From Mobula hypostoma (taxonomy: Eukaryota): DNA of 64,000 bases. The stretch covers positions 44,332,001 through 44,396,000 of the forward strand of contig NC_086108.1 in the NCBI RefSeq assembly GCF_963921235.1, given 5' to 3'. The translations under genes and the position numbers were made by a program. Positions 3,912 to 62,250 of the stretch are shown here, piece after piece (position 1 is the first letter of the stretch; each line of letters opens with the position of its first letter). Below the pieces are notes generated by a model. It saw nothing but the letters and a program-made list of their open reading frames with translations. It did not search any database and was not told the origin of the DNA.

Positions 3912-5150
3912 GTAAGTTTCAATATTAAACCTCTTTGTTGCTTGGTTTTGGCAGACCTGGCTTAACTTGCAGTGGAATCATGCTTTGAGATTGAGTGCAT
4001 GTGCTTTTAAATAATTAATTTTCTATAAAATCCTACATTTGTTTTAAGAAATTTTGGCCCCTTCAATTGTTGGGAGATAAATTTTTATCTACATTGTTCA
4101 GTTCTTTCATATGCTTGAAATACTTTTATTTTATTCTCATTTCCTGATTTTTTAAAAACAATCTAATTATGAATTTGGGTTGAATCCTCTCTAAACCATT
4201 GTATATATTTAGCATATAGTACCCTGATACTTCATATTGGGTTTTAATTATTATTTTGAATGCTCATTATTAACTTTTTTGTGGATCTATTGAAGCACGT
4301 TACCTGGTTTACATTTCTTATAAACTTCCAGAATCTTATAGGTTTTCCTTCACAGCCTGATCAACATGTAGTACTGCCCTTTAATGTCCTGCTGAAATAT
4401 ATCACCAACCTCTCTGCTTTTCCATAGCAGTGAACCTTGTTCTATTTGGCATCTAATTACAGCCCATTTACTTCATCAAAATGTTTCCCTTGTTTACCAG
4501 ATTTTTGACATCCACTTAAATTTTACTTTCCCCAATATTTATCAATATCCTTTTACAGATTCTTTCGATTGAAGAATTTAGACAAACTTCCTATTTTTAA
4601 ATTAAATGAATACTTTTGCACCACTTCCTATTTGAAGTACAGTAAGCAGAAGTGATTTCCAGATCTGAACCCTGTGGGATACCACAAGGAACCTTCAACC
4701 AATTCAGAAAGTTTCTTTTCTCCATCTTCTTCTTTCTTTTCATGTCCACATCCCTCAACTCCAGTTCCATATCCACTAATATTTTCAAAATAACAGTTTG
4801 TATTTTGTTAAAAGAATTTTTATTATATCTTTGTCCATTGAACTCTATTCATCTGCAATGTACTTGCACTTCTGGATTGCCTTTCATGGCTTATGTTTTC
4901 TGAAATGTAGTTGTGACAACCAAATTCCTCTGATCCAATATTGGTAGAATAATTTTAAGTGCCCAATAAATAAATATGGATGCTCATACCTTCCAGGTGA
5001 GGCACTGCTTCACCTGTAAGTCTATCAGGGTTACTTTCTGCATCCGTTGCTCTTGATGCAGTCTCTTCTACATTGGTGAGATCCAACACAGATTGGCAGA
5101 CAGCTTGGTCGAGCAACTTTGTAAGAGAAAGGATCCTGGTGGCCCCCATT

Positions 5151-5867: not shown

Positions 5868-6272
5868 GTCTAAGTAGTGTCCAACCCAATGGCATGAACA
5901 TTGGTTTTTCTAACTTCTCCACATTTCCTGCTCTCTTCCTTTGTTTTCTGTCATTCTGATGGTTCTCTTACCCACTTCCCCTGGCCTCATTACCAGCCCA
6001 TCATCTCCCTCTGGTTTCCCAAGCCCAGAGTAACAATCTTCCGCCTATAATCTTCCTTTTAACATCATTCCCTTTCATTTCTTCCCCCCCCCTTCCCCAC
6101 CTGCCTACTTTCCCTATCATGTGCTCCACCCCCCCCCCCACTTTTTTTATTCTGGCTTCTGACCTCTTCCAGTCCCGATGAAGGGTCTTGGCCTGAAATA
6201 CTGATTGTTCATTTTGCCCCATTGATGCTGCCTGCCCTATTGAGTTCCTCCAGCATCTTGTGATTGTTGCTC

Positions 6273-6705
6273 TGGGCTTGTATTCACTGAAATTCAGAAG
6301 AATGTTGGGGGGGGGGTGGAATCTCATTGAAACCTATTGAATGTTGAAAGGCTTTGATAGAGTAGATTTGGAGAAGATGTTTGCCATGGAGAGGGAGTCT
6401 AAGACCAGAGGATATAGCTTCAGCATAGAGGGACATCTGTTTAGAATGGAGATGAGGAGGAATTTCTGTAGCCAGAGAGTAGTGAATCTGTGGAATTTGT
6501 TGCCACAGACTGCTTTGGAGGCCAAGTCAATGGGTATGTTTAAGGCAGAGGTTGATAGATTCTTGATTAGTATTGGCATGAAGGGATATGGAGAGAAGGC
6601 GGGAGATTGGGGCTGAGAGTGAAATGGGTCTGCCATCAGGAAGTGGCGGTGCAAACTCAATGGGCCAAATGGCCTAATTCTGTTACTATATCTTATGGTT
6701 TATTA
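6273..6705 (+). mobile_element. CR1-type LINE 3' fragment
   Basis: MLKGFDRVDLEKMF...RRNFCSQRVVNLWNLLPQ followed by a CR1 3' UTR. Confidence 0.85.
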
Positions 6706-8652: not shown

Positions 8653-9126
8653 TAGATGCAGAGGTGATAATAAAGGATGTTGCCTGGATTGGGGAGCACG
8701 CCTTATGAGAATAGGTTGAGTGAGCTTGGCCTTTTCTCCTTGGAGCGATGGAGGATGAGAGGTGACCTGATAGAGGTGTATAAGATGATGAGAGGCATTG
8801 ATTGTGTGGATAGTCAGAGGCTTTTTCCCAGGGCTGAAATGGTTGCCACAAGAGGGCACAGGTTTAAGGTGCTTGGGAGTAAGTACAGAGGAGATGTCAG
8901 GGTAAGTTATTCTTGCAGAGAATGGTGAATGCGTGGAATAGGCTGCTGGCAACAGTGGTGGAGGCAGATACGATAGGGTCTTTTAAGAGACTTTTGGATA
9001 GGTACATGGAGCTTAGAAAAATAGAGGGTTATGGGTAACCCTAGTAGTTTCTAAGGTAGGGACATGTTCAGCACAACTTTGTGGGCCGAAGGGCCTGTAT
9101 TGTGCTGTAGGTTTTCTATGTTTCTA
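8653..9126 (+). mobile_element. CR1-type LINE 3' fragment
   Basis: YENRLSELGLFSLERWRMRGDLIEVYKMMRG and ttttctatgtttcta tail; same subfamily as 40510-41453. Confidence 0.88.
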
Positions 9127-11659
9127 AACTTACAGAAAGTAGTAATTTGATGGTTTTAGATGTGCTAATTTCAAAGAAATGTCAGGATTAAGGAAAAGAC
9201 AATAAAAAGAGATTTGCTAATGGAGTTAGGATGAGAGGTTACAATCACAAATAAAGACCAGTGTACATAAGGCTGAGGAAAAATATCCAATGATGGTACT
9301 CACCCAGTTTAATCAGTTAAAGAAAGAAAGGAACAGTTTGATAGTTGGTAAGGAGTTAACCACAGGACAAAAATAACATTATCAAAATAAAAGGAGAAAG
9401 TTAAAGTGTGTTTTTATAGTTAGGATAAAGCATAGCAAACCACTATCAGAAATAATGGTGTGAGGAAATTCTATTATAGCCTTTTTTAAACTTGAAATGG
9501 AGAGGAGACAAGACTGTATGATTAATAGAACCAGCCATGCTGGAGTGAATTACTTCCCCTATAAAATATTTCTAGAGGATTCCCGTCTTCAGTTCCCTTC
9601 TGACTTTCACTTGAATCGTTTCTTAAGATGCAGCTTATGCTACAATAGTCAAAGGTTGATGTAAAGCTGCAATTAGCCCAATCAAAATAGATAACTACAA
9701 CACCCCTGCTTCTATTACTTGCTCCTTTTGATGATCTTTGTTTTAATACTTATACCCTTGTGCTTTCTGGAATTTTTTTTTATTGGTTGACTGTTATCTG
9801 CTTTACCCTGGTGATCTGTTGGCAGTGGCTTGCAATTTGTAATTACTTTGTAGCTCTGCTAATCCTGCTAACATGAGTGGTGCAATTGACTAATGTGGCC
9901 TTTGGAAAAGGAGTGGGAAATAAAACAAACTAGATGTTTGCAATCAAATAATTACTCCTGAAAGTAGGTGTCTAATGAATCCCAATTACAATGCTCTTTG
10001 TTAATTAACTTGCTGCTATTTGGCTTATACTTGGACATTATTTTTAAGGTGATCAGTGGAAAATATGGGGGGATTGTCAGCTCTTTTTACACAGTGTTAA
10101 GTGTGTGGAATGCACTGTCAGGGTTTGTGATCAAGGCAAATACATTAGAGACTGTAGGTTAGGTATATGGATGAAAGAGGTATGGGACTATGATGGAGGG
10201 ATGAATCAGATTGATCTTGGAGTAAGTTACAAGGCCATCACAGCAATGTGGGTGGAAGGATCTGTATTTATGTTCTATTCAATAAAAAGGAAACCTGAAT
10301 TATGGTCACTACTACAATACCCAACAGCTGTGGAAATGGACCTGCTTTCAAAACTGGGTGGGATGCAGAAGAGTCAGTAAGTTCCAGCAGACAAATAGAT
10401 AAACACACTTGATGAATGGCCTCAGCCTGAAATATTGATGTCAATTCCTCTCTATAGATGCTGCCTGACCTACTGAATTGCTCCAGCATTGTCTGTTACT
10501 CTGCATAAGCACAGAATCACCATCAGCACCAGAGCTTGCATTTATCCCATCAAGTGAAAATTGTATAGACTAATATGTGTTGTGCACATCAATCAAATTA
10601 CTTTTTCCAAAAAAAAAGTGGTTCTGTTGCATTAATAATCTGATCAAAATAAATCCCAGTTCAGTGGGTGCTTTGTAAATATACAGTCGTTCATTTGCAT
10701 TTTCACTTTTTTTTAAACTAGGATGTGTTTGCAGACCTTTGCTATTTTCTCAGGAGCCTGTGCTGCAATCACTTTTAAGAGCCATTTTCCATTAGTAGAA
10801 CATATCTACTCACCAGCAGCCCACACTCCCTGGTGAAATAGAGGGAGTCAGGTTATGGAGAAGGGGAGTCTAACATAAAGTATATTGTTGGAGCACAACA
10901 GTACCCACTGTTTTATGGGCATATGTGCAACATCACAACACAACGGAAGGATGTCAGGACTGAAAATCTTGAGTGGCTGGATTGCTGTCTCTGGCTGCAA
11001 AGGTGACAGGAGCTTTATATTTTCCACCTGTGGGCCGTTGTATGTTGATGTAGAATGTGTCCCCAGGGTCTCCCATTGAGCTGTCCGTGGCAGGATCAGG
11101 GAAGGTACAAGGGTAGCCAATGCAAAGAAAGGTAGAATCACCTTTCCTTCCTACCCACACCACCCCCAACCACAAATAGGGAACAGCAAGGGACACATGC
11201 ACTAGAGTTTTGAAATATGAACTTTATCCCTGTGCAAAGTGTGATTAAATTGCAACCTATCACATTAATGGTTTGAGAAAGACCTACGAAACTGTAAGCT
11301 GTTGCATCTCCCATATCTGTGGGTTGTGTGCAAAGTCATTTAAAAAAAAATAAATGTTCATGGTGCATACCAGAAACCCAAGGAAAGGGCAGGACTCATC
11401 TTGCTTCCATCAGCTGTGCGCGCAATATTTGAGCTACCCTGCCAGACCAATAGATGGTCGTTAGAGAAGATGTTCGATCCCCTTTGCACCTGCTGCCTCA
11501 TCCTACCAGAGCTGCACAAATAAGGAGGGGCACTCTTGCAGAGAGGGAAGTATATTCACACAAAGTATTGTAGATACCACCATCTTTAATTCAGTAGGAA
11601 GTAAAGGAACAAAAGTAGGCCTTTTGTGGCATTGCCTTAGAGATTCTTTGGGATCCTGA

Positions 11660-14146: not shown

Positions 14147-14496
14147 CCTCCCCCAGCTGCCTATCACCTCCCCCATGGTTCCACCTCCTTCTACTACCCA
14201 TTGTGTTTTCCCCTATTCCTTCTTCCCTTTCCTGCCTATCACCTCCCTGCTTCCCCTCCCTCACCCCTTTGTCTTTCCCCTTACTGTTTTTTCACCTGGA
14301 ACCTACCAGCCTTCTCCTTCCCACCCTCCCCCACCTTCTTTATAGGGCCTCTGCCCCTTCCCTCTACAGTCCTGACGAAGGGTTCCAGCCCAAAACGTCG
14401 ACTCATCGTTTCCACGGATGCTGCCTAACCTGCTGAGTTCCTCCAGCGTGTTGTGAATGTTGCTTTGATCCCAGCATCTGCAGAATATTTTGTGTT
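14147..14496 (+). mobile_element. Penelope-like element 3' region with a decayed hammerhead motif
   Basis: Pyrimidine-rich tract, then cagtcctgacgaagggttccagcccaaaacgtcgact...gatgctgcc...gagttcctccagc...ccagcatctgcag, homologous to 61200-61579. Confidence 0.8.
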
Positions 14497-16787
14497 AACA
14501 AGTTGTGTACTGTTGTTTGTGGATGCTCAATATTGCCCAAATACTGAGAGGAGGACTTTGCATAATCAACCCTGAGCTGGGAAGGACCTTGCTAGGTCTA
14601 AATTTGGTACCTAGAATGATGTCAGCTGCCCACTTGGTTTTATTTTTTTCTGCTTTAACTAATAGACCTGATACAACCCAGTGGCTTGCTGAGCCAGGTA
14701 GGAAGGTATGAGATACGTAAATTGCTACAAGTCTGGACTCAGAAATTACAGAGACCATGCAAAGATGGCAAATTGCATTGAAGGGCATTAGAGTACCAGA
14801 TAAGTTTCTAGCAACAATCCAGTTATTTAATGGCCTACATCATTGAGGGAGCCTGTTTTAAATAATCCAGTTTATTAACTGAATATAAATTCTACCACCT
14901 TGGTGGGATTTGAATTCACGCCCCCTGAGTGTTAGTCCAAGTACCTGAGTTACTAAACAGGAAACTTAATCACCAATCAACATACTTTAACTGAGTAAAA
15001 AAAGATTGAGATTATTTAGGAATATCATTTTCATGTGTTTTAACTTCTACCAATAATATTTTCTAATACAGGTATACCACAGTTACTCCAGGAAATAATG
15101 AATACTCTGCTACTTATATATTGGTGCTTCTTTGAATAGTATAAGGATAGATACTAAACTGAGCAGTCTATGTGCCTAATCTGCTCGCCTGGGAATGCTG
15201 AAAAGCAGACAGACTTTGCCAGAAACATCTATGCAGCAAGTGAAAGTCCTTCCCAATACTATAATTTGAAACATGCAACTGTATCAGATAGGTTCAGCTA
15301 ACAGGTAGCTGTGGACTGCACTCTTCAATCTCCAATGTTTCCTCTGAAATTCATACTTCTGAAATTTTGTTTTCACAAATTTTAGACATAAATTTTGTGA
15401 AAGATAAACTTAGAATTAAGTTTCCAAATATATATAGTATATACATCTGGTTTGACATGTGATATGCTTTCCATTTCTAATACAGGTCATTTGTATTGGA
15501 CCTACATTTCTGAGAGAGATTGTCATTTAACACCAAATAATTAATTTTCATTTGTTAATCTGGACCATCTAGGAAATAAAACGGAGATTTTCCAAACTAA
15601 TTACAGGTAACAGGGCTTCATCTTAGTTCCTGGACTAAGAGACCAGGATCTAACCATCTAGACCAGTAATTTCCAGCTTATGTACTCTGTATCTAAGTGA
15701 ACAAATGGCTTGTGTAGACTAGACAAGACAATTTCAGTGGTCATGTTGGTGACTTGCAAAACTTCTGTCTCAATACCAATGAATTAAAGAATTACAAATG
15801 AAAAGAAATTTTGTTTTTCCCATCAATAGCTTGGTTGGTGAATAACTTGCTGATAAGCAATATAAATAAGGAAGGTCCCAGTTTATATCCGTCAATGTAG
15901 CCTGAGGAACAATTATTGGTCTTGACATCTTTTAGCACAGAAGCAAAGGACTGAAGTGTATAGATTTCTATCCAGTAACAGACGTTGAAAGAAATCATTA
16001 GTGCATTTCAGATGAGGTGGGAAAGACTCATTTGCACCTAGAACCTGGAGCAATTTCAAGAAGTCTGATTCAACACAAATAGATGGAACCTGTAGCATTT
16101 CAAGAATTAAGGCATGTTTTCTCACTGCTTTTCTGAGAGCAACAGATCATTAATATATAAACTTGCTACCAGCTTCTGTTGTCAAAACATGGTCCTAATT
16201 TGCAGGATTTTTCATGTATGAAATTGTAGCTTTTCTATCTCATATGTCACCTCCTGTCATCAAGTTTCTTTTCAAAGTTGAATGAAACTTGTATTAAATT
16301 GTATCCTCCAAAAAAAAAGGGTCTTGTTAACATGTATAGCATGACCTCTTATCTGTAAAACAATGCTGGATTTCCATCTCATCTTCATTTCCAAAGGATG
16401 ACCCTGAACCGTGCTTTAACAATACTCACAAATTGTTTTACAACATCTCAGGTCAAGCTTACTAGTCTAGAATTCCCAAATCCTCTCATTAATTGGTGCC
16501 AGCCAGGTTAGCTGCTTCTCAGTCATCTGGGGTCTCCAAGGGATAGTTTTTTCTACAGAAAACCTTATTATACAATCAGTGTTGAGTATATTACCATCAA
16601 TTACAAATGTTTTCTTTCTTGTCTTCTGCCTCTTCTGAAGCTGCTGGTTCGTGCTACAGCAATGTCCACATTCTGTATTCCTCTCCCCAACACGACATTC
16701 AAGTCAACAGTTTTCCTGATTCTGGGCTATTCAACTATTGGCAGGAACAACAACAGGCTAAAATATGTATACAAGTATATATATTTC

Positions 16788-20600: not shown

Positions 20601-21884
20601 AGTGTCAAAGATTTATGAGAGGACTGGAGTGAATAGGGTTGTGGATGGATACTGGGGTTTTCCTAAGCAGATGTCCATTTTCTCTTGGTACCATCTGTGC
20701 TGTGATTGAGCTGCCGACCAGGACCGACACCAGTGCCGGAAGGGCACAAATTGTCAGTAGGGTCAACTTGACAAAAGCCTTCTCTTTTGACTCGACACCA
20801 ATCCACTGTACTACAATGTTTTCAAAGCACTTTGTTCCACAAACAATCTTCATGCTGGAATCCTTTAAGAAGTAAATCCGTTGATGCAAGAAATGGGATT
20901 TTAGCTCTTATGGTGAGGAGTTTACTTCCAACCAGTATAACGGCAGGTTATAATTTTTGATAAGGTTTTCCTCAGGGCTAGTTTTCCCCTCCTGTTGAAC
21001 GTTTTGTAGTCTGAAGTCCTCCTTCAGTCCTTCTTTACCTTTCTCCCCCTGTAAAAGATATCAACCTTGCCATTGAAGAAAGGATTTCTATTTACAATAC
21101 TGAATGTAGGGAAAGTAGGAAGCCTTTATGGGAGGAGTCTTTTTAAAGGTAGTGGAGGTGGAAAGGTTTCCTCAGGGAATTGGAGAGCAATGCTGGTGTT
21201 GGGATTGCACTCTTGTTGGTGTACTGGGGCTTGTGGAATGATTGAGATGGGAGCAGCCTCTGAGCTGCAGTTCAGTGCTGAAGGAGACTATAACAAGTTG
21301 CTGGAACCAGTGAAGATCTGCAAAGGCAGATGCAATGAATGATCAGTTGAAAGAGCCAATGGGGAAAGTGCCGGAGAACTAAACCTACAGATGAGAAGTT
21401 TCAGCCGTGATAACATTTGAGGAAGGTGCTTAGGGAGGAATGGGTAGAAAAGGTTGATTTTGGTGAGTTTGAAGCTATGGACCTGACCAGACAACAGATT
21501 TATATTAGGTTTTGCCCAAACTAGCAAAGAGGAGGCCAGAATCACAATAGCTATACTAAAGGGTTATAACATGGGACCACTATGGTACTTCTGAATTCCT
21601 CCAGTATGTGACCAGGCACAGGTGTTTACATCAGGGGTCCCCGGATATTAATCAGGACATGAAGTTGTCCCAGTTTCACTTCCCTAATCCTTGACTTCAA
21701 GACACCAACTGGAGTTTTCTTTTCTACTGTTGCTCTATTTAGGATTAAAGGACTCAACACTAATTGGAGACAAAATCTTCCGCTTTGCGTGTCTCACAGG
21801 AAAGAGCATCTAATTCAGTCTCAATACCCCACATCACTGTTCATGTCGTTCTGATAATAAAAGAGCATGATGCCATTATTCTTG

Positions 21885-22322
21885 ACGCGAGAGATTCTGC
21901 AGACGCTGGAAGTCCAGAGTAACACACACAAAATGCTGGCGGAACTCAGCAGGTCAGGCAGCATCTATGGAGAGGAATAAGCAGTCGAAGTTTTGGGCCG
22001 AGACCCTTCATCAAGACGAGAAAGAAAGGGGGAAGAAGCCAGAGTAAGAAGGTGGGGGGGGGGTGAAGGGACGGAATACAAGCTGGCAGGTGATAGATGA
22101 AGTCACCTGAGTGGGAAGGTAGGTAGGGAGGTAGGGGAGGGGAAATTAAGTGATAAGCTGGGAGGTGATAGATGGAAAAGGTAAAGAGCTGAGGAAGGAG
22201 GAGGATTTTGCCTTCTTCTCCCCTTCCTTTCCAACCGATGAAGGGTCTCAGCCCAAAACGTTGACAGTTTATTAATTTTCCTAAATGCTGCCTGACTTGC
22301 TGGGTTCCTCCAACATTCTGCA
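21885..22322. mobile_element. Two Penelope-like 3' ends in inverted arrangement
   Basis: A minus-strand copy (about 21885-22204) abuts a plus-strand copy (about 22205-22322); arms about 21928-22038 and 22212-22321 are complementary. Confidence 0.8.
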
Positions 22323-23194: not shown

Positions 23195-25070
23195 TGGTAT
23201 TGGTTTCTTATTGTCCAATGAACCAAGATACAATGAAAAGCTTGACTTGTATACTGTTTATACAGATCAAATCATTACATGGTGCACAAGGTAGAACAAT
23301 AACAATGCAAAAGAAGTGCAGTGCAGGTAAACAATAAAGTGCAAAGTCATAAAGAGGTAGCTTGTGAGGCCACAAATCCATCTTATCGTCCATTTAGGAG
23401 TCTGATAACAGAGTGGGATAGAAGCTGTCCTTGAGCCTAGAAGTACGTGTTTTCAAGTTTTTGTATCTTCTGTCCTTTGGGAGAGTGGTCTGGGTATGAT
23501 CTCCAGAAAGCAATTTTATAGGCGAAGTGGCAATGTCAGACTGATTATGAATCAATGAAGAATGCTCAACACCTGAAGCAGAACTTAAATGCGACATGGG
23601 TGACAACAGGGCTTCACTTCCAGATGAGCTCAAAGTTCAAAACAAATTTATTACCAAAGTACATATATGTCACCATATACAACCCGGAGATTCATTTTCT
23701 TCTGGGCATACTAAATAAATCTATAGAATCAATGAAGGACCACCCAACTTGGGCATTCAACCAAAGTGCAGAAGACAGCCAAATGTGCAAATACAAAATA
23801 AATAAATAAATAAATAAGCAAGCAAGCATTAAATATCAAGAACATGAGATGGGGAATCCTTGAAAGTGAGTCCATTGGTTGTGGGAACATTTCAACAATG
23901 GGGCGAGTGAAGTCGTTAACTCCTTTGGTTCTTGAGCCTGATGGGGTTGAGGGGTAGTAACTGTTCCTGAACCTGGTGGTGTGAGCTCTGAGACTCCTAA
24001 ACCTTCTTTCTGATGGCAGCAGCAAGAAGAATGCCTTCTATGCTCACTTTGACCGTCAAAGTGTGAAGGAACCTTCACAAACTCCCACAGCCCTCAATAA
24101 CCCTATGATTTCTGTCTCTGGTGTGCGAGGAAGCGGAAGTGAGGTGGGCGGGCGGGCAGGAATCCGTGTCAGGAAAGAAGTAAACCCTAGCCGGCCGGCT
24201 CTCCCGTCCATTCTGTCTCCAATGTCCACTTGCTGAGGGAATCGGGCCGGCAGTCCTCGGAGTCGCCTGATGCCGGTGGCCGGAGGTGGGGACGTCGTAA
24301 GCGGTGTGCGAGGAAGCGGAAACGAGGCAAACGGGCAGGAGTCCGTGCCGGGAGAAAAGCAAGCCCTAGCCGGCCGGCTCTCCCGTCCATTCTGCTCACC
24401 AACAAACATTAAATTGGACTGCATCCGACTCCAACAAAATACTCGGCGGGGGTACAGAAATGGACAGAACCCCGGACTCAGCTGTTTATTTATGTAAGTT
24501 CCCCCCCCACCCCCACCAAGCCATCGGACTACCAACCTACTGCCCTCTGCTGTGCCTATTGTCTTGTTTATTATTTATTGTAATGCCTGCACTGTTCTGT
24601 GTACTTTATGCAGTCCTGGGTAGGTCTGTAGTCTGGTGTAGTTTTTGTGTTGTTTTACATAGTTCAGTGTAGTTTTTGTATTGTTTCATGTAGCACCATG
24701 GTCATGAAAAACGTCGTCCCGTTTTTACTGTGTACTGTACCAGCAGTTATGGTCGAAATGACAATAAAAAGTGACTTGACTTGACTTGATATTAGAGATT
24801 CCTTCAAGAGGATGATCCCTTGGGAATCATCCAGCCCAGACAGCATACCTGGCTGAGTACTGAAGACTTGTGCTGATCAGCTGTCTGGAGTGTTCTCAGA
24901 TATCTTTAACCTCTCGCTTCGGCAGTTGGTTGTGGTCTTTCATCGATTTTATCGTGGTTCACGATATTAAACCTGATTCTGATTTACTAAGTATGCCTGC
25001 AAGAAATCAAATCTTAGAGTAGTATATGATTACATTTATGTACTTTGATAATAAACTTACTTTGAACTTT
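23195..25070. mobile_element. Cluster of Rex1/Babar-like LINE fragments on both strands
   Basis: Minus: LPKDRRYKNLKTRTSRLKDSFYP and LLPSERRFRSLRAHTTRFRNSYYP; plus: AFYAHFD...ISVS and VLKTCADQLSGVFSDIFNLSL; tail tactttgataataaacttactttgaactttg. Confidence 0.8.
24120..24789 (+). mobile_element. Young internally deleted Rex-like element with a duplicated 5' module
   Basis: CpG-rich [17 protein letters not shown]...[11 protein letters not shown] module present twice, fused to a 3' UTR ending aataaaaagt(gactt)n; interrupts an older RT fragment. Confidence 0.75.
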
Positions 25071-38493: not shown

Positions 38494-38578
38494 TGTATTT
38501 TGGGACCTTTACTGTGCAGCTCCTGAAAGGCGAGACACTTGTGAACATTCGAGTGAAGCAAAAGCCTTTCATGATTAT
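38494..38578 (+). CDS. SSBP3: SSBP3 coding exon 4
   Basis: Polypyrimidine tract plus atcag|T acceptor and TAT|gtgagt donor; [28 protein letters not shown]; no later exon recognised in the window. Confidence 0.95.
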
Positions 38579-40509
38579 GTGAGTTAATTAAAAGTTCTTC
38601 TGGATAATTATTTTGGTACACGATCTTGGTTGTCAACTTCTGTGTTCCTTTATGGAGTAGTATGTGTTGATGCTTGTGCATAGAATCTCAACTTTCTGGG
38701 AGGAGAAACTTTTTGTCAAAATAAATCTGTATGAGTTACAGATTCTGTGATTTTAAAGTGTTTGTTAGAAAGAATGAAAAGAATTGTATTTTTCTGGTCT
38801 TTATAATCTGGGTTAATTTGCAAAAGAATCATTTTGGATGGATTTGCTGCGAGCCTTGCTTTAAAACAGGAAACAAGTGCAAGTAGATCATTGTCTTAAA
38901 GAAGTGGCATTAAGTCTGTTTACATGGTTCCTTGTAGACTTTTTATTAAAGTGAATACATTTTGTTTCAAGGACATCAGATATTTTGAATTTGTAATTTT
39001 GTGTGAAAAGTGAAAGGTGGTCTTCATATAAACAGGACCATTTGCCTTTGGTCACTGAACTTTCAGCATACTGGTACATGGTACATATAATGATTTTCAG
39101 CAGGTGCCTGGGGTACATTTAATGCAGTGAGAGTCCAAGATCAATCTGCTTTGAATCTGAGCCTTCAGAATTGTACATTGTAGATTGTTGTGCATGATTT
39201 AAGAACACTGTTAGAAATGTGTTTAAAATTAAATGCAACTCTTTTTTTGCAGAAAATTAATTATTTTAAGAATAGATTTGACTGGTGGAAAAATAATCTT
39301 AACAGCTAAGATCTCATTAAGAATTTTATGTACTGAGTAAGACTTGTGTTGGGGGATTTTCCTCGTGGTGAGTGGCAGTTGTCATGATGAGTTTGACTAG
39401 TTGCTGACACATGCTTTGAATTAACACTTGGGCACTGGGGGTGTCATGATTAAGTATGCTGATGATGGTGAATGATATTATAAACCCTCAAATATAGAAC
39501 ACTTGCTAGAAGAGCAAGCAGCCTCTTTGTAGGAATATTGTGGAAAATGGAATGTTGGAATGGTTCAAGAATGTGTTTGTATTTGTGCTTTTATTTAAAA
39601 AAAGGATTTTGACTGTTTAAATTTAGTTTTAAAATACAAAAGAACCCACATAAAGCTCTAAATGTGTGGGATACCTGCCAACAGATGTTTTGTGGCGCTC
39701 TTTAGTACAACTTTTGCTCTGGTAGTGTAATCATGTCTGTTGGTATGTCACTGGTTCAGCTGAGTTGAGTTCTGTCATTTACTTTCTGATTGGATGTGAG
39801 GTGAAGTTAGTATGCTTTTGCAAGAACTGTACCTTCCCAGCAAGACTGTGCTAGAGACTAGAAAATTTATAACCCTGGCATAGGGTTTTATGTGTTGGCC
39901 AGGTGATGACAACCTGTTTAAGTAGCTGCACTGCAGGTGGAACTGAGTGGTTGAAACCAGGCTAAGGTGACCAGTTGAATAACAATAGTTTACCAAACTT
40001 GGAGGAAAAATTGTTGAAGGGTACATGCTGTATAATTTTCAACTATGTTAAGAAAAATACATAAGTGACGTTGCAAATTGTACACTTTTCTGTCGTAATC
40101 TGTTCAAACACTTTATGAGTTGTTTTAAAAAAAACAACTTATTTCTCATGGTTTACTTCTAAGAACTTGCATGGAAGATGACTGTAGGACAGTATATTTA
40201 GAGCTTTCATTGAAGTTAACACTGTAGATCTCAACATTTTTACATAAATTAAACTGGTTCCATAATTGGTGTAATTAATTTATGAAGGATATCATGGAAA
40301 CAGCTTTATGTAACATAAGAGCACCTGAGGTGTCTGATTTGAGCAAATGTTGACAATTACAGTCAAAAGGCACTGGGCTCAAAAGAATCTTCTCTGATTC
40401 AGACTGCTGGCTAAGTGCTGCCTCTTGGTTCACAACTGCTTGATGTCCGCTGAACTCCGTTTGGTGACTTTGCTGATCTTAAACAAGATGGGTGGGTTTG
40501 GATACTTTT

Positions 40510-41453
40510 TAGAAACGTAGAAAACCTACAGCACGATACAGGCCCTTCGGCCCACAAAGTTGCATGGAACATGTCCCTACCTTAGAAATTACCTAGGGTT
40601 ACCCATAGCCCTCTATTTTTCTAAGCTCCATGTACCTATCCAGGAGTCTCTTAAAAGACCCTATCGTATCCGCCTCCACCACCGTCACTGGCAGTCTATT
40701 CCATGCACTCACCACTTTCTGCATAAACAACTTACCCCGACATCTCCTCTGTACCTACTTCCAAGCACCTTAAAACTGTGCCCTCTCGTGCTAGCCATTT
40801 CAGCCCTGGGAACAAGCCTCTATCCACACGATCAATGCCTCTCATTATCTTATACACCTCTATCAGGTCACCTCTCATCCTCTGTCGCTCCAAGGAGAAA
40901 AGGCCGAGTTCACTCAACCTATTCTCATAAAGCATGCCTCCCAATCTAGGCAACATCCTTGTAAATCTCCTCTGCACTCTGTCTATGGCTTCCATGTCCT
41001 TCCTGTAGTGAGGTGACCAGAACTGAGCACAGTACTCCAAGTGAGGTCTGACCAGGGTCTTATATAGCTGCAACATTACCTCTCAGCTCGTAAACTCAAT
41101 CCCACGATTGATGAAGGCCAATGCACCATATGCCTTCTTAACCACACAGTCAACCTGCGCCGCAGCTTTGAGTGTCCTATGGACTCGGACCCCAAGATCC
41201 CTCTGAACCTCCACACTGCCAGGAGTCTTACCATTAATGCTATATTCCACCATCATATCTGACCTACCATAATGAACCACTTCACACTTATCTGGGTTAA
41301 ACTCCATCTGCCACTTCTCAGCCCAGTTTTGCATCCCATCAATGTCCCGTTGTAACTTCTGATAGCCCTCCACACTATCCACAACACTCCCAACCTTTGT
41401 GTCATCAGCAAATTTACTAAACCATCCCTCCACTTCCTCATCCAGGTCATTTA
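40510..41453 (-). mobile_element. Young 5'-truncated CR1 LINE
   Basis: SKFADDTK...WAEKWQMEFNPDKCEV and LYKTLVRPHLEYCAQFWSP; frameshifted; tail ttttctacgtttcta. Confidence 0.92.
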
Positions 41454-46020: not shown

Positions 46021-47044
46021 ATCATCTAAGAATCTTGCGAGCACATCCTTCATCATAATCTCCCTCTAACTGGTAGGTTATCCATTCTATGGTTTATGGG
46101 TTTTCTTTCTTCCTTGACCTCTAAATCATTTGCTACTCTCCACTGTAGGAACTGTTCCTTAACATGTAGAATTTGGAAAATAATAACTAATAGTAATAAT
46201 GAATTCATACATTATTTCTTTTGCTTTTCAATTTTTATTATTTTGAGATTCAGATTATCCATCCTAGAAATTTCTCAAGAACAATTTTTATTGTTTCCTT
46301 TAATTCCTTTTCAATTGGACTCTTAGTTACCTGGCATTTCTGGGAAGTTGTGTCCACATCAGTGAAGTCAACTAAAGACTTTAATTTCTCTGCATTTCTT
46401 TTCCCCTTAATATAAACTAAGGAGCTTCATTTGTTGTCTTTATTTTTTTCCTGTTTAAGAAGATTTCATGATTCACTTTTATCTCTTTCCAAGTTTATTC
46501 TTGTACTCTCTTTTTTACTTCCTTAATCTTTGTCCATTTTCACTGAATTCTAAACTATTCCTAATTTTCTACTTTCTCTGACAACTTTATTTGACTCTTT
46601 TTTGGATCTAAGACTACATTTTTATTCATCGTATGACTATTTTCCTTTTCAGATGTAGATGTGTTCTTGCATTTGGTTCTTAAATGTCGACCATTTCCTA
46701 TCTACTATCATTTTTTTTTGTATTTTTTTGTTTTTTTTTCTTTTACTATCATATTTTTTAGTGAATGTTCCTCAGTGTTTCATGGCCTGCTCACTGGTAC
46801 ATTTGTTGGTTTGTGTAAAATTAAAGACACTAGTTTTAGACTGAACTATTTCACATACTACCTTAAATTCTATCTTTCCTAAAGGATGCGGCACAACACG
46901 ATTATTGATTAACCCCCTTGCACAGTACCCAAACCCAGATAGCTCGTTAGCTGTTCAGCTAGAGAACAACTTGTCTAAAATGTAATCCACTTCTAACTCT
47001 GCAAATCTATTTTCTGTGCTACTTTCAGAGAGTCTATGACTGTA

Positions 47045-47320
47045 GGATGCAGCTTTAGAATAGAAGGATGCCCCTTTAGAACAGATATGAGGAGGAATTT
47101 TTTTAGCCAGAGGGTGGTGAATCTGTGAAATTCATTTCCACAGATGGCTGTGGCAGCCATATTTAAAGCAGAGGCTGATGGCTTCTAGATTAGTGAGAGC
47201 ATCAAAGGTTATGGACAGAAGGCAGGAAATAGGGTTCAGCGCAAAAATAAATTGGCATGATTGAATAGTGGAGCAGACTTGATGGGCTGAATCGCCTTTT
47301 CCTGCTCCTATGTCTTATTG
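47045..47320 (+). mobile_element. CR1 3' fragment
   Basis: gatatgaggaggaatttttttagccagagggtggtgaatctgtg...cctgctcctatgtcttat. Confidence 0.8.
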
Positions 47321-50300
47321 CTAATTTGGTTTGAGCAGTCTATATTTATGATTAATTCTCTAACTTGCTGGTCTGTTGTCCCCCATGTTATTGGTTGGAG
47401 GCCAAGTGACGAATCCCATTAATGCTTATTGCCCGTGTCATTTAGCTCTACCCTGACTGATTCTGCATCTTGGATTTTTTTTAGTGAATATTCTTTATCA
47501 TAATTTGTATTTGCTGCTTTATTAACAATGCCTCACAGCTCTTCTTTTCCTTGCTGTCCACTGAAATCAGGCATCCAAGAACACGGTACTGGGTCCAAGC
47601 ACATTTTTAAGAGGTTTCAAAGGCTTTAATGATAAGAAAATGAAGGATTAAAGGGCTTGCATAAAATCAACTGACAAGAAGGCTTGTTTCTAAGCTAGAT
47701 GGTTAAATGCTTAAATGCTGTATCTTGGCAACAAAATATTTAACTTTTCTGACTATTTTCAAAATTGACCCCTGATCACCTTGGTCAATTATGTAGGTGT
47801 TTAAGTGGCATAAAAACTACTAGGGTCGATAAATGGAAGCAAGTATCAGTTTTTCAGAGTTTGAGAGAAGCTTGGAAGTCCTTCTACAATGATCTCAATT
47901 GAATCTTGAGGTTTCATTCTGCTGAAGTTGTGGATGGACTGATTCAATTGTGTAAAGGTTGTGAAGTTTTTAGTGTTTTGAAAGGAAAATAGCTGAATAG
48001 TAGGCTGATTTGGAATAACACACATGGATTTTTAGTGCAGTTAATGTTGAAAATACTCATGATGTAAATTTTGGAATAGTTAAATTTGCAGAATGATACT
48101 TTTGCCTTCCCCTCTGCTCCTTTTGCCACTTGGTCCGGACCTGACGTTGCTCGGATGTGGCTGAATACGAATTACGTTGTGGCAACTCTGCCTTTGATTT
48201 CGAGGGCATGAGGTGTGTTTCCTTGATATCCTGCAATGGTAGGTTAACTGTCATTTAAGTACCCTCAGTGTGCAGATGAGGAAGGGAAGAAATGTGGGGG
48301 AAGAGGCATGGAAAGGGAATAAAAAGAAATTAGTGCAATTGGGCCCATAATGGTTGGCATAGATTTGCTGGGATGTAAAGCATTTTTCAGTGCTGTGTGA
48401 CTTTGACTTGAGTAATGGTAAAAATTGCACACGAGTCTTGTGTGAGGGACTACAGTTGCTCCTACATGGCTAATGTGGAGTTCATATAAGGCTTTTTTTG
48501 AATTGGTGAGGTGATGGCTTTATCACCATTTTTCCTAGGGGGCAGAACATTTAGCTTCATGTGATTCAGTTGGATTTTCACTGTTCAGTTGAATGTGTGA
48601 GGGATACTACCCCAAAGTACTCCTTCACTACTACACTGGTCATTCTTAATTTTAAAATAAAATCCAGTATGCGGCCTGAATCCACGAGTTTGTAATCCAG
48701 AGCTAAGAATATAAGGCAGATGAAAATACAGAAATAACTACAGATGCTAGAAATCTGAAATAATAAATTGCTGGAAAAACTCAGCAGGTCGGGCTGCATC
48801 TGTGGGAAGAGAAACTGTTTGGTTCAGGCTGAAGACCCTGCATCAGAACTGAGCTGCTGAATTTTCCCAGCATATGCTGTTGAAGCAGAATTTCAAGCAG
48901 ATGTCCTACAACCACTAATGGAGTGTGGGAAATGTGTGTATGGTTTGTGTCTGATTTAATCTGGCAAAATTCATTTTGCTTGAACCATTTCCTCATTATT
49001 GAGATTATGGACTTATGGAAGTTTTACTATTGAATTTTAAGGTTTTCCTCTTGGTTTTTTTTTAATCCCTAAATTTCTAAGAAGGGTCATCGGTGTCTTT
49101 GCACAGCTTCCAGATGCATCCCCAATGGGTGGCCATTCTTTGTCTCAGTCATCCCAGACGGTGTATGTCAGCAGGCTTACTTACATGTGTAACATGTGGG
49201 AGGTCAATCCTGACCTCGGCTAACCTGACTCTGCTTGTGTGCATTTTCCAACATGGGTAGTGATTGAGAATGGGCACCCTTGCTGATGGTCTGAAATGTT
49301 AAATTAGAGGTGTTGAAGCCTCCTGTTGTGGTCCAACAGCCACTCTGATGAGGTCAAACAGGGTAATTTGCAAAATAATAGATGGGCTGTGACCTCACTT
49401 GTTTTGAAAAAATATTGACACATTCAAATGTACATGTCAAAAAGTATGTGTATTACTAAAATTAAAGCTAAAAATGTGGAGACTGCATGTTCTTGCTTTA
49501 GTGTCAAAATCCATGAAAACCAGGTATTTGGTATAGGGTATGTCAATGTGATTTCTGCCTGCACGTTTGATTACTTGGTAAAGGGAGAAGTAGTGTGTGA
49601 TTTTCCAGCTACTTGGTCTGTTTTTCTGAAATCTGTATTCACCTGGAGTTTCACTGGAAGAAACATTGAATAGGAAACCTGATGAAAAAAGAATGAAAGT
49701 AACATGTCACAGAAAAGGATAACATACTTTATTAAAATTGGTCCTCCAAAGCTGTATCTTAGTTGCAATGTGTAAGCTAATTGAATAGTTCACAAACAGA
49801 TGGAGCATTTGACTTTAGTGAGTAAAATTTAAAGAGCAGTGCGCAGTTCAATTCTGCTATATCATTTTAAAAAAAGCTTATGGAACACTTCATTTGAGAA
49901 TTTTTATGGAGCTTATAAATCTGTTTCCTCCTTTCACCATAAAATTATATAAATGTAACTACTGGGATTTAATAGAAATTCAATGTGAGTTTAGCAGTGC
50001 CCATAATTTTATTTTGTCCTGGATGCATTATATTAACACCCCTTGTGATCGGGTTGAAGCTCTTGTGTCCTGGTGGGTGGATCTTGAATCCATCCATTGG
50101 CATTTGGATTATAAGGCTGCAAAGTGGAAGCTTCAGAATCTGATGCAGGATTTTCAGCCCTCCTCCTTCACAGATGGGATTAGCTGTGTACCAGTGTTGA
50201 AGAGTAAGCTCGAAAATGATATTCAGGTTTATCAATCATCCTCTCTTGATTTACCTAAATGATAGCTGTTGTTTCAGAGTAAATAAATAAATTATCAAAA

Positions 50301-54662: not shown

Positions 54663-55090
54663 TCTGGGCCTGTACTCGCTGTAGTTCAGAAGAATGAAGG
54701 GGGATATCATTGAAACCTATTGAAAGGCCAAGATATAGTGGATGTGGCAAGGATGTTTGCTATAGTGGGTGAATCAGGGACCAGAGGACACAGCCTTAGA
54801 ATAGAGGGACATCTATTTAGAGCAGAGATGAGAAGGAATTTATTCAGCCAGAGGGTAGTGAATCTATGGAATTCATTCCCACAGACGGCTGTGGAGGCCA
54901 AACCATTGGATATATTTAATATGGAGGTTGATAGATTCTTGGTTAGTTCAAGGTATCAAAGGTTACAGGGAAGATGCAAGAGAATGGGGGTTGAGAAGGA
55001 TGATAATTCTGACAAGATGGAATGGTGGAGTAGACTTGATGGGCTGAGAGGCATAACTCTGTTCCTATGTCTTACCATCTTATAGTCTTA
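54663..55090 (+). mobile_element. CR1 3' fragment
   Basis: GESGTRGHSLRIEGHLFRAEMRRNLFSQRVVNLWNSFPQ. Confidence 0.85.
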
Positions 55091-59790: not shown

Positions 59791-60598
59791 AAAGAAGTAC
59801 TCACTAGTCTACTGTTCTTTGAATTTTCCTGTCTCCGGGAATTCTGTGCCGTGATCTGATTGCTTTATTTTGTACTTGGCTTTCCTGCTGGTTGTCACTT
59901 TGGATCGTTTTAAACTTTTTAATTTCTGTGAAGTTACATTTAATGTCAACTTCCATTGTTTCTGTAATATTAGGATGTAGATTTGTTCTGATGACAAGTT
60001 ACAGACCTGAAACATTGACTTTGTTTGATCTGCTGCAGTTGTTGGCTAACCTGTGTTTTGTATGTTTTAAGGTTTTTGAGCCTTTGTAGTCTTGAATTCC
60101 TCTCCTGGAAGAGGGGTGTTGCATATGCGTTAATTTTCAGGGACACAAGAATTGTATTGGATCTGTACACTTCTCTTTGCCACTGGCTCAAACTCCCCAG
60201 GTCCTACCCTGATATAGGTTTATATCCAAGAGAAAGAACATTGGGAGGAAAATAAAATATTTTTTGTATGTTTATGAGCTGGAGTGGTACAACTCTTATT
60301 AAAATAACTAATTATAAATCTTTGCAGTGTTTCATAAAATGGAATAAATTAATACTTATTCTATAGCATCTCATGAAATTGAGTATAAATGATCTTGTGC
60401 TGCAGCAGCTGGTGTCAACAGAATTTATTTTTTTAAAGCAGAGAATAATTAGCAGAACACAAGGAATCTTGGGCTATTTGATTTTTTTCCCTTTTGAATT
60501 ACATTTTGGAAAACGATAAAAATGGTTATTCGCCCCAAAAAGAGTCAAGGTAATACATTGCCAGCAGTAGCATATCTGCACTGCAATAGGCTGGAATA

Positions 60599-61579
60599 CC
60601 CCACTAGCCTCCGGGTCCAACATATTATTCTCCGTAACTTCCGCCACCTCCAACGGGATCCCACCACTAAGCACATCTTTCCCTCCCCCCCCTCTCTCTG
60701 CATTCCGCAGGGATCGCTCCCTACGCAACTCCCTTGTCCATTCGTCCCCCCCATCCCTCCCCACGGATCTCCCTCCTGGCACTTAGCCGTGTAAGCGGAA
60801 CAAGTGCTACACATGCTCTTACACTTCCTCCCTTACCACCATTCAGGGCCCCAAACAATCCTTCCAGGTGAGGCAACACTTCACCTGTGAGTCGACTGGG
60901 GTGATATACTGCGTCCGGTGCTCCTGATGTGGCCTTTTATATATTGGCGAGACCCGACGCAGACTGGGAGACCGCTTTGCTGAACATCTACGCTCTGTCC
61001 GCCAGAGAAAGCAGGATCTCCCAGTGGCCACACATTTTAATTCCACATCCCATTCCCATTCTGACATGTCTATCCACGGCCTCCTCTACTGTAAAGATGA
61101 AGCCACACTCAGGTTGGAGGAACAACACCTTATATTCCGTCTGGGTAGCCTCCAACCTGATGGCATGAACATCGACTTCTCTAACTTCCGCTAAGGCCCC
61201 ACCTCCCCCTCGTACCCCATCTGTTACTTATTTTTATGCACACATTCTTTCTCTCACTCTCCTTTTTCTCCCTCTGTCCCTCTGAATATACCTCTTGCCC
61301 ATCCTCTGGGTCCCCCCACCCCCCCGGCTTGTCTTTCTTCCCGGACCTCCTGTCCCATGATCCTCTCGTATCCCCTTTTGCCTATCACCTGTCCAGCTCT
61401 CGGCTCCATCCCTCCCCCTCCTGTCTTCTCCTATCATATTGCATCTCCCCCTCCCCCTCCAGCTTTCACTCTTCCTTCAGTTAGTCCTGACGAAGGGTCT
61501 CGGCCTGAAACGTCGACTGCGCCTCTTCCTACAGATGCTGCTTGGCCTGCTGTGTTCACCAGCAACTTTGATGTGTGTT
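60599..61579 (+). mobile_element. Young 5'-truncated Penelope-like retroelement with GIY-YIG endonuclease
   Basis: FTCESTGVIYCVRCS*CGLLYIGETRRRLGDRFAEHLRSV...PVATHFN...LRLEEQHLIFRLGSLQPDGMNIDFSNFR* (end 61194); premature stops at 60784 and 60925 plus a poly-C frameshift; flanked by GCTGGAATA at 60590-60598 and 61580-61588. Confidence 0.93.
61483..61518 (+). ncRNA. Minimal type I hammerhead ribozyme motif
   Basis: AGUC (stem I) - CUGACGA - A - GGGUCUCGGCCU (stem II) - GAAA - CG - UC^ - GACU (stem I'); conserved core nucleotides present; predicted cleavage after 61514. Confidence 0.75.
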
Positions 61580-62114
61580 GCTGGAATATCTGATCTGCTT
61601 TTCTCAGGGCTGCACAGGGAAACAACTGCAGGTAAAATTTTAGGGTTGCATTGTTTGAATTACAAAATTTTCCCTTAACAAAATTGACAAATTTCTATCT
61701 AAATATTTGAAATGCATCAGGGGAGGGGGGTGGTGATCGTGGAGAAAGGAGGTAAACAAGTCAACACAATTTCCTCCCCCCCCCCCCCATATAGTGAGTT
61801 TTGGAAATCATTGTAGGTTACAAAAGTATGTATTTTTGGCAATTATTGTTTCATTGGCATTCTGTAATTTAACAGATTATAGGAGTGAGCAGATGAGTCC
61901 AGTACATACCGATCCCTAAATTTTATATCACTTATGATTGAAATAACCATGATAGAAGAGTTAATCAATTTGTATAACTTTGTATTTTTACCAAAGGGAA
62001 AGTTTCTAGCAGGCTTAATTGTGGCGTGTCATGTGTGGAAAAACACATGGATAGTTCTGATAAAATTGGCGTGGCAAACAGTAAGCAACCAGAGCAAAGT
62101 GAATCATGCAATAG

Positions 62115-62250
62115 GCTGGGGGAACTCAGCAGGCCAGGCAGCATCTGTGGAAAAGAGTAAGCAGTCGATGTTTTGGGCCAAGACCCTTCATCAGGGAAAG
62201 CAGTTGAGGAGTAGATTATTTAAAAGGTGGGGGGGGGGAGGGGGAGAGAA
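62115..62250 (-). mobile_element. Penelope-like 3' end fragment
   Basis: ggaactcagcaggccaggcagcatct...cagtcgatgttttgggccaagacccttcatcagg. Confidence 0.75.

Follow-up and report, generated by a model that had tools for sequence, protein, structure and literature searches.

The window analyzed here, a stretch of 64,000 nucleotides from Mobula hypostoma, carries at 61483–61518 the minimal type I hammerhead motif of a young Penelope-like insertion, which is probably an inert passenger in an SSBP intron. A single intronic motif of this sort is an ordinary 3′-tail signature of a Penelope-like element (PLE), and motifs of the kind were already described in 2014 (PMC4209133). The useful point is one of scale, namely tens of thousands of identical recent hammerhead insertions, numbers that permit a well-powered test of in vivo cutting by Penelope hammerheads and of host selection against them.

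Table 1. Features of the host gene, the inserted element and its hammerhead motif (window coordinates).
Feature	Position	Strand	Basis
Seven older, core-broken terminal-repeat homologues	6124–6301, 10409–10501, 14321–14503 (+); 21878–22018 (−); 22236–22307 (+); 48765–48852, 62120–62247 (−)	as given	
Exon 4 of host SSBP/SSDP gene	38494–38578	+	27/28 residues identical to SSBP2 chain 8hib_A
Host intron 4, 124,652 nt	38579–64000, onward to window-extended 163230	+	Exons 4 and 5
Target-site duplication, left copy, GCTGGAATA, 9 bp	60590–60598	+	Homology to relatives ends here
5′-truncated Penelope-like element, 3′ tail short of the last ~35 nt	60599–61579	+	Alignment of relatives
C-terminal ORF remnant: Cys-rich linker and GIY-YIG endonuclease	60697–61194	+	PF01541
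Predicted anti-core hairpin, pairs 61468–61474/61492–61498 and 61477–61480/61487–61490	61468–61498	+	
Stem I, 5′ strand (U)AGUC	61482–61486	+	Sequence, fold
Core C3–A9 (CUGACGA, 61487–61493) and extra A61494 between A9 and 10.1	61487–61494	+	Sequence, descriptor match
Stem-loop II, GGGU-CUCG-GCCU, with G10.1-U11.1 wobble	61495–61506	+	Fold, alignment
Core G12 A13 A14 (61507–61509), palindromic stem III ACGU (61510–61513), C17 (61514)	61507–61514	+	Sequence, descriptor
Stem I, 3′ strand GACU(G)	61515–61519	+	Sequence, fold
Target-site duplication, right copy; first 3 nt also match element end (microhomology)	61580–61588	+	

The hammerhead motif

Read directly on the + strand, the 36 nt are AGTC-CTGACGA-A-GGGTCTCGGCCT-GAAA-CG-TC-GACT (Table 1). 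The first-pass annotation had claimed an intact hammerhead core here, and this is correct to the base: the core is complete at 12 of 12 positions (C3 U4 G5 A6 N7 G8 A9, G12 A13 A14 A15.1, U16.1 H17). The topology is type I, with stem II present and a stem I of 4–5 bp (AGUC/GACU plus a terminal U-G, 5 bp in all), and the palindrome ACGU at 15.2–16.2 stands where a stable stem III would be, in agreement with the minimal architecture that had been proposed. The cleavage site is predicted between 61514 and 61515. The extra A between 9 and 10.1 is kept in 169 of 173 old and 36 of 37 young copies in the alignment described below. The pair G10.1-C11.1, a typical feature of minimal hammerheads (min-HHRs) that lies outside the published descriptor, is absent, its place being taken by a G-U wobble in the window copy and in the young subfamily.

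A strict descriptor comprising the core, both stems and the palindromic stem III gave 15 matches in 1,014,000 sampled bases, every one from the same repeat family, versus 0 in the reversed sequence and 0, 0 and 0 in three shuffles; the motif is beyond chance. A search with hammerhead models had been suggested as a check, and its outcome was divided: the descriptor matched, and the Rfam covariance models placed no hammerhead family at the motif at E values up to 10, six weak Rfam matches all falling off the motif with scores far below gathering. A core-like string at 59982 was considered as a second hammerhead and rejected, as it is stemless and fails the descriptor.

The Penelope-like element and its relatives

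The assignment of the motif to a Penelope-like element is upheld by the endonuclease remnant, by the target duplication and by relatives with reverse transcriptase (RT) and GIY-YIG domains. Translated with X at two in-frame stops, the remnant matches PF01541 (E 8.7e-5, 23.2 bits versus a cut-off of 22.6). The stop at 60784–60786 occurs in the window copy alone among 30 aligned copies; that at 60925–60927, just inside the endonuclease domain, is common to 19 of the 30, a count biased by the ranking of copies by likeness to the window copy, and suggests a source without a full endonuclease that was copied in trans. The natural ORF stop is at 61192–61194, and the hammerhead lies 293 nt downstream of it, in the position of the 3′ terminal repeat of a Penelope-like element.

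The window element differs by 1.9% from the majority sequence of 29 close relatives, and, judged by this divergence and by its intact target duplication, the insertion is young. When 60700–61600 was used as a query against the genome (best 40 of 4,745 candidates scored, 42 matches), the full-length matches were 95–96% identical to the window copy, with one exception at 89%. The 5′ end appeared to be fixed at 60598 in 21 of 29 relatives, as if this were a discrete 1-kb non-autonomous element, and we rejected that reading because relatives extend upstream by 165 to >1,400 nt; the apparent boundary is merely the query end.

Open frames of more than 1,000 residues with RT and GIY-YIG domains were present in two of the five long relatives examined (L032 and L034, 1022 and 1004 aa), the matches to RVT_1 (E 1.1e-4 and 1.6e-5) and GIY-YIG (E 4.9e-4 and 9.5e-4) all being below Pfam cut-offs. 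The L032 frame has a DKG motif and, at residues 889–897 between RT and endonuclease (EN), a CX2-5CxxC linker that the window remnant has too. Among named proteins the best matches come from rays (Mobula hypostoma, 88–94%; Hypanus sabinus, 76–87%) and from sharks. Partial tandem or inverted arrangements (pseudo-LTRs) are found in L031, L033 and L034. In the partial tandem L033 the 3′ end of one copy runs into the ORF start of the next, so that the hammerhead is directly upstream of the next ORF, with the likely start codon ~140 nt after the cut site. Inverted truncated copies are described as usual for Penelope-like elements (PMC8557442).

Two inverted fusions have their junction within or at the edge of the hammerhead (L037 near 9793–10000, window-extended 83793–84007; and G000:C1:2546804-2546875). 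An older copy of the endonuclease-coding segment, 75% identical, lies at 4989–5118.

Copy number

The repeat family is as abundant as had been supposed. The exact 36-mer occurs 16,386 + 16,500 = 32,886 times in the 3.48 Gb genome (control 0), and the intact core pattern has 86,137 matches genome-wide versus 9 in the reversed control. A random 800-kb sample contained 102 profile matches to the terminal repeat, 8 of them exact, and the 102 extrapolate to roughly 440,000 genome-wide. Within 1.6 Mb sampled, none of 40 core-intact copies had a same-strand partner inside its own 10-kb stretch. Hammerheads with other stems, searched genome-wide, gave 1,301 matches versus 80 in the control; among 100 matches listed nearly all were decayed copies of the same family, and therefore no cross-family covariation is obtainable in this genome.

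Decay of inserted copies and change between lineages

Our alignment holds 311 homologues from 1.81 Mb, of which 211 span the motif (37 young and 174 old; the 100 partial rows were left out). All 12 core positions are intact in 33 of 37 young and 28 of 174 old copies. As read from this alignment, inserted copies decay neutrally, because in old copies G12 is lost as often as a neutral loop G (65 and 64 of 174, Fisher p 1.0) and non-CpG core columns diverge much like the downstream block (9.7% and 11.2%); four TG/CA tests of CpG decay in old copies gave p 0.06–0.84. The window insertion is young and its motif identical in 27 of 30 close copies, and its intact core therefore requires no selection.

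This bears on the idea that the motif was domesticated to regulate the splicing of its host gene, in the manner of the intronic hammerheads conserved in amniote RECK: domestication of intronic hammerheads has been proposed (PMC6155905), and the copy is sense, core-intact and in a long intron of a developmental regulator, but an insertion only 1.9% from its family majority with its target duplication intact, and with a stem III that cannot close as a monomer, makes that idea highly improbable.

On function in the source elements the evidence between lineages is mixed. The motif might be vestigial even in young source elements, copied as part of a 3′ end needed for reverse transcription and no longer cleaving, a reading we consider doubtful though worth serious attention. 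U11.1 replaces the conserved C in 31 of 37 young copies, as this reading would have it (across all 211 homologues the pair 10.1-11.1 is G-U in 93 and G-C in 82); its occurrence as a subfamily trait in the alignment rules out a private CpG mutation of the window copy. An older lineage with A6C (CUGC for CUGA; for example L124:4451, L087:2826 and L070:8290) was amplified even though A6C is described as a natural variant of low activity that favours Mn2+ (PMC3088659; PMC7151607). A6C with linked flank differences is found in 23 of 174 old copies, and among the first 100 of 1,537 listed matches an eye count at position 6 gave 72 C, 21 G and 7 T. The downstream block is conserved as well as the core, and hammerhead mutants of an anole PLE, whose ribozyme needs the element's protein, are reported to insert in vitro all the same (PMC11167929).

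Three features speak for function rather than a vestige. Within the 36-mer the majority sequences of young and old copies agree everywhere but at N7 and 11.1, versus 8 differences in the 13 nt of spacer that follow stem I; the CpG change that became fixed at 11.1–12 is the one that retains G12; and one old lineage has a compensatory change of C-G to U-A at the first stem I pair (AGUU/AACU). At this pair the old copies comprise 22 U-A, 8 U-G, 36 C-A and 88 C-G (Fisher p 1.4e-5; three control columns p 0.28–0.84). Genome-wide the counts are 389, 710, 4,159 and 15,375, an odds ratio of just ~2.0 that age differences among copies could inflate. By eye count, stem-loop II is one base longer in 19 of the first 100 U-A matches versus 1 of 100 C-G matches. 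Covariation across copies, which had been proposed as a check, is seen at one stem I pair in one old lineage; the eight other pairs in stems I–III have at most three double changes each, and double CpG decay accounts for the 12 rows with TA at the palindrome. In-genome support for function in source elements is thin, being one compensatory change in stem I set beside an A6C lineage that still spread. In the A6C and U11.1 lineages nature offers a test of the role of cleavage in transposition.

Predicted folding

Folded by itself, the motif is predicted to form stem II (GGGU/GCCU, CUCG loop) with pair probabilities of 0.87–0.97, the alternative A-U register having 0.02. The isolated monomer is predicted to form an inactive rod in which GACG pairs with CGUC (−11.0 kcal/mol). 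The double hammerhead is predicted at −11.5 kcal/mol versus −22.0 for two monomers and −30.3 for an inactive duplex; these energies would disfavour the active dimer, nearest-neighbour values leaving out core tertiary contacts and protein help. The predicted anti-core hairpin buries CUGA and GAAGGG at six of six transcript lengths tried, and with 40 nt of upstream flank added the predicted probability of stems I and II drops to about 0. Across 30 aligned copies 61470–61498 is nearly invariant. The anti-core pairing may have arisen by chance from the pyrimidine richness of the 3′ UTR. We also note that the segment 61468–61498 contains a family-encoded pyrimidine tract which, by prediction, base-pairs with the core while stems I and II have yet to be transcribed.

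The host gene and cleavage of its pre-mRNA

The host is an SSBP/SSDP-family gene on the + strand whose exons 1–4, found using short motifs, lie within the window; exon 4 differs from SSBP2 in one residue. Exon 4 ends at 38578 and exon 5 is at window-extended 163231 (in L045; Pfam SSDP match E 2.9e-9), and therefore the motif is sense within the 124.6-kb intron 4, as had been claimed, ~22.9 kb from its donor. The naming of the host as SSBP3 stands in part: family membership is supported by the Pfam SSDP match, and the paralogue label is our assumption from the SSBP3 N-terminus sequence. In the 173 kb of host gene scanned, no sense copy but the window copy retains an intact catalytic half. Six further ACGU-H-GAC substrate halves lie there in sense, and the window copy could in principle cut them.

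For the source elements we infer from PMC4209133 and PMC11167929 a scheme in which two motifs of a partial tandem would pair through ACGU, with the catalytic half coming from one motif and the cleavage site from its partner; the element's own protein would likely assist dimer cleavage, and the element's precursor RNA would be processed. By analogy with the PMC4209133 model of the double hammerhead, the cut strand would need a partner with an intact catalytic half. Single min-HHRs are reported not to cleave, and dimers and trimers to cleave at a low level (PMC4209133), and by this likeness the motif would depend on dimers, as the first-pass annotation proposed. This intronic copy, for which inactive hairpins are predicted and no cis partner with its catalytic half intact is present in the 173 kb scanned, would rarely cut host pre-mRNA, and we regard such cleavage as unlikely on these models. 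Splicing would probably cope with a slow cut inside the intron: PMC2995048, with reference to Dye 2006 and Fong 2009, reports that cutting of an intron by a slow hammerhead does not prevent its splicing.

Strand bias was tested in the host gene and in the spans of 12 glutamate-receptor genes, deduced from Pfam exon matches that share one orientation. In these 973,440 bases of intragenic DNA there are 12 sense and 10 antisense core-intact copies (p 0.83), a count that includes the window copy itself (11 and 9 without the host gene), versus 32 sense and 38 antisense core-broken copies (Fisher p 0.63). Sense core-intact intronic copies are not depleted in this set, which with 22 copies in 13 genes rules out only a strong deficit, and tolerance of intronic cuts by splicing could mask real cleavage in such a test. 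An annotated genome would supply thousands of copies for the same comparison. With no catalytic partner in cis, predicted sequestration of the core, neutral decay and no sense depletion, the idea of a notable self-cleaving RNA acting in the host pre-mRNA is not supported.

Cutting in trans deserves separate consideration, as ~33,000 identical copies could serve as partners for the window copy. Transcripts of these copies, with help from the element's protein in places where it is expressed, might pair through ACGU and nick host pre-mRNAs genome-wide, including this intron. The 32,886 identical copies and 86,137 intact cores, the relatives with open ORFs and the protein-assisted cleavage demonstrated for the anole PLE (PMC11167929) are all in keeping with this; it is nonetheless unlikely, as the predicted dimer is weak and the upstream hairpin would form first, sense intronic copies are not depleted, and the available account of the anole element reports no RNA-seq ends at its hammerhead cut site (PMC11167929). 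A more elaborate version, in which a recent and possibly ongoing Penelope burst seeded >80,000 intact cores that the anti-core hairpin silences in read-through transcripts, and that element protein and trans-pairing activate, nicking of host pre-mRNAs being thereby confined to sites of element activity, we consider quite improbable.

Comparison with known systems

Cervera and De la Pena (2014, PMC4209133) described min-HHRs in the terminal repeats of PLEs from fishes, coelacanth, Xenopus and reptiles, and Lunse et al. (RNA Biol 14:1499, cited in PMC6765202) also deals with minimal hammerheads. The motif described here agrees with the published type (PMC4209133) in its type I topology, in a complete core with an additional nucleotide between 9 and 10.1, in a short stem I and a palindrome at 15.2–16.2, in its terminal-repeat location, and in its occurrence mostly as dispersed single copies from truncated elements. 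It differs in having G10.1-U11.1 instead of the conserved G-C, and a stem II of 4 bp. Core matches of the ray family number 86,137, far above the published figures for Xenopus tropicalis (~9,000) and coelacanth (~4,000; PMC4209133), the descriptors being different. Cartilaginous fish are not named among the min-HHR hosts in the available text of that paper. Our literature search, outside which lay most subscription papers and the repeat databases, found no published description of the ray Penelope family, and queries on hammerhead ribozymes and Penelope in sharks and on batoid genomes found nothing on such elements.

Like the EN+ PLEs of Craig et al. (2021, PMC8557442), the ray family has a single RT plus C-terminal GIY-YIG frame, a DKG motif, a Cys linker, a 3′ hammerhead, partial tandems and inverted truncated copies; unlike those described there, the window copy is flanked by a clear 9-bp target duplication and lies outside any (TA)n repeat. 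The CX2-5CxxC linker between RT and EN defines the Neptune and Nematis clades (PMC8557442), and by this motif the ray element would resemble one or the other. Poseidon PAc of Anolis (PMC11167929) is likewise a vertebrate PLE with a minimal hammerhead in its terminal repeat, but it is probably of a different clade and its ORF starts inside the hammerhead, whereas the likely start codon of the ray ORF, as placed by the L033 tandem junction, is ~140 nt after the cut site; hammerhead activity has been shown for PAc, and the ray motif is known from sequence.

Non-LTR retrozymes also have a type I hammerhead of PLE origin and are reported in the sole chondrichthyan genome sampled (bioRxiv 10.64898/2026.07.22.740005). 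They are non-coding tandem arrays with a hammerhead in each unit, whereas the window copy is single and truncated with a coding remnant. With the RECK-type amniote hammerheads (PMC6155905) the window motif shares type I topology and an orientation sense to the intron; those are single-locus and conserved across species, whereas the window motif belongs to a set of recent insertions that runs into the tens of thousands.

Other repeats and gene clusters

Other dispersed repeats in the window lie at 6344–6571, 47017–47159 and 54720–54947. A long inverted pair (8657–9128 with 40508–40976) has 89–92% complementarity, and there are two local tandem duplications (2178–2419 and 24120–24394). Elsewhere in the genome, G000:C9:9.9-11.9 Mb holds a cluster of some 25–30 ANF_receptor-domain genes, which we take to be, probably, chemoreceptors of V2R/OlfC type.
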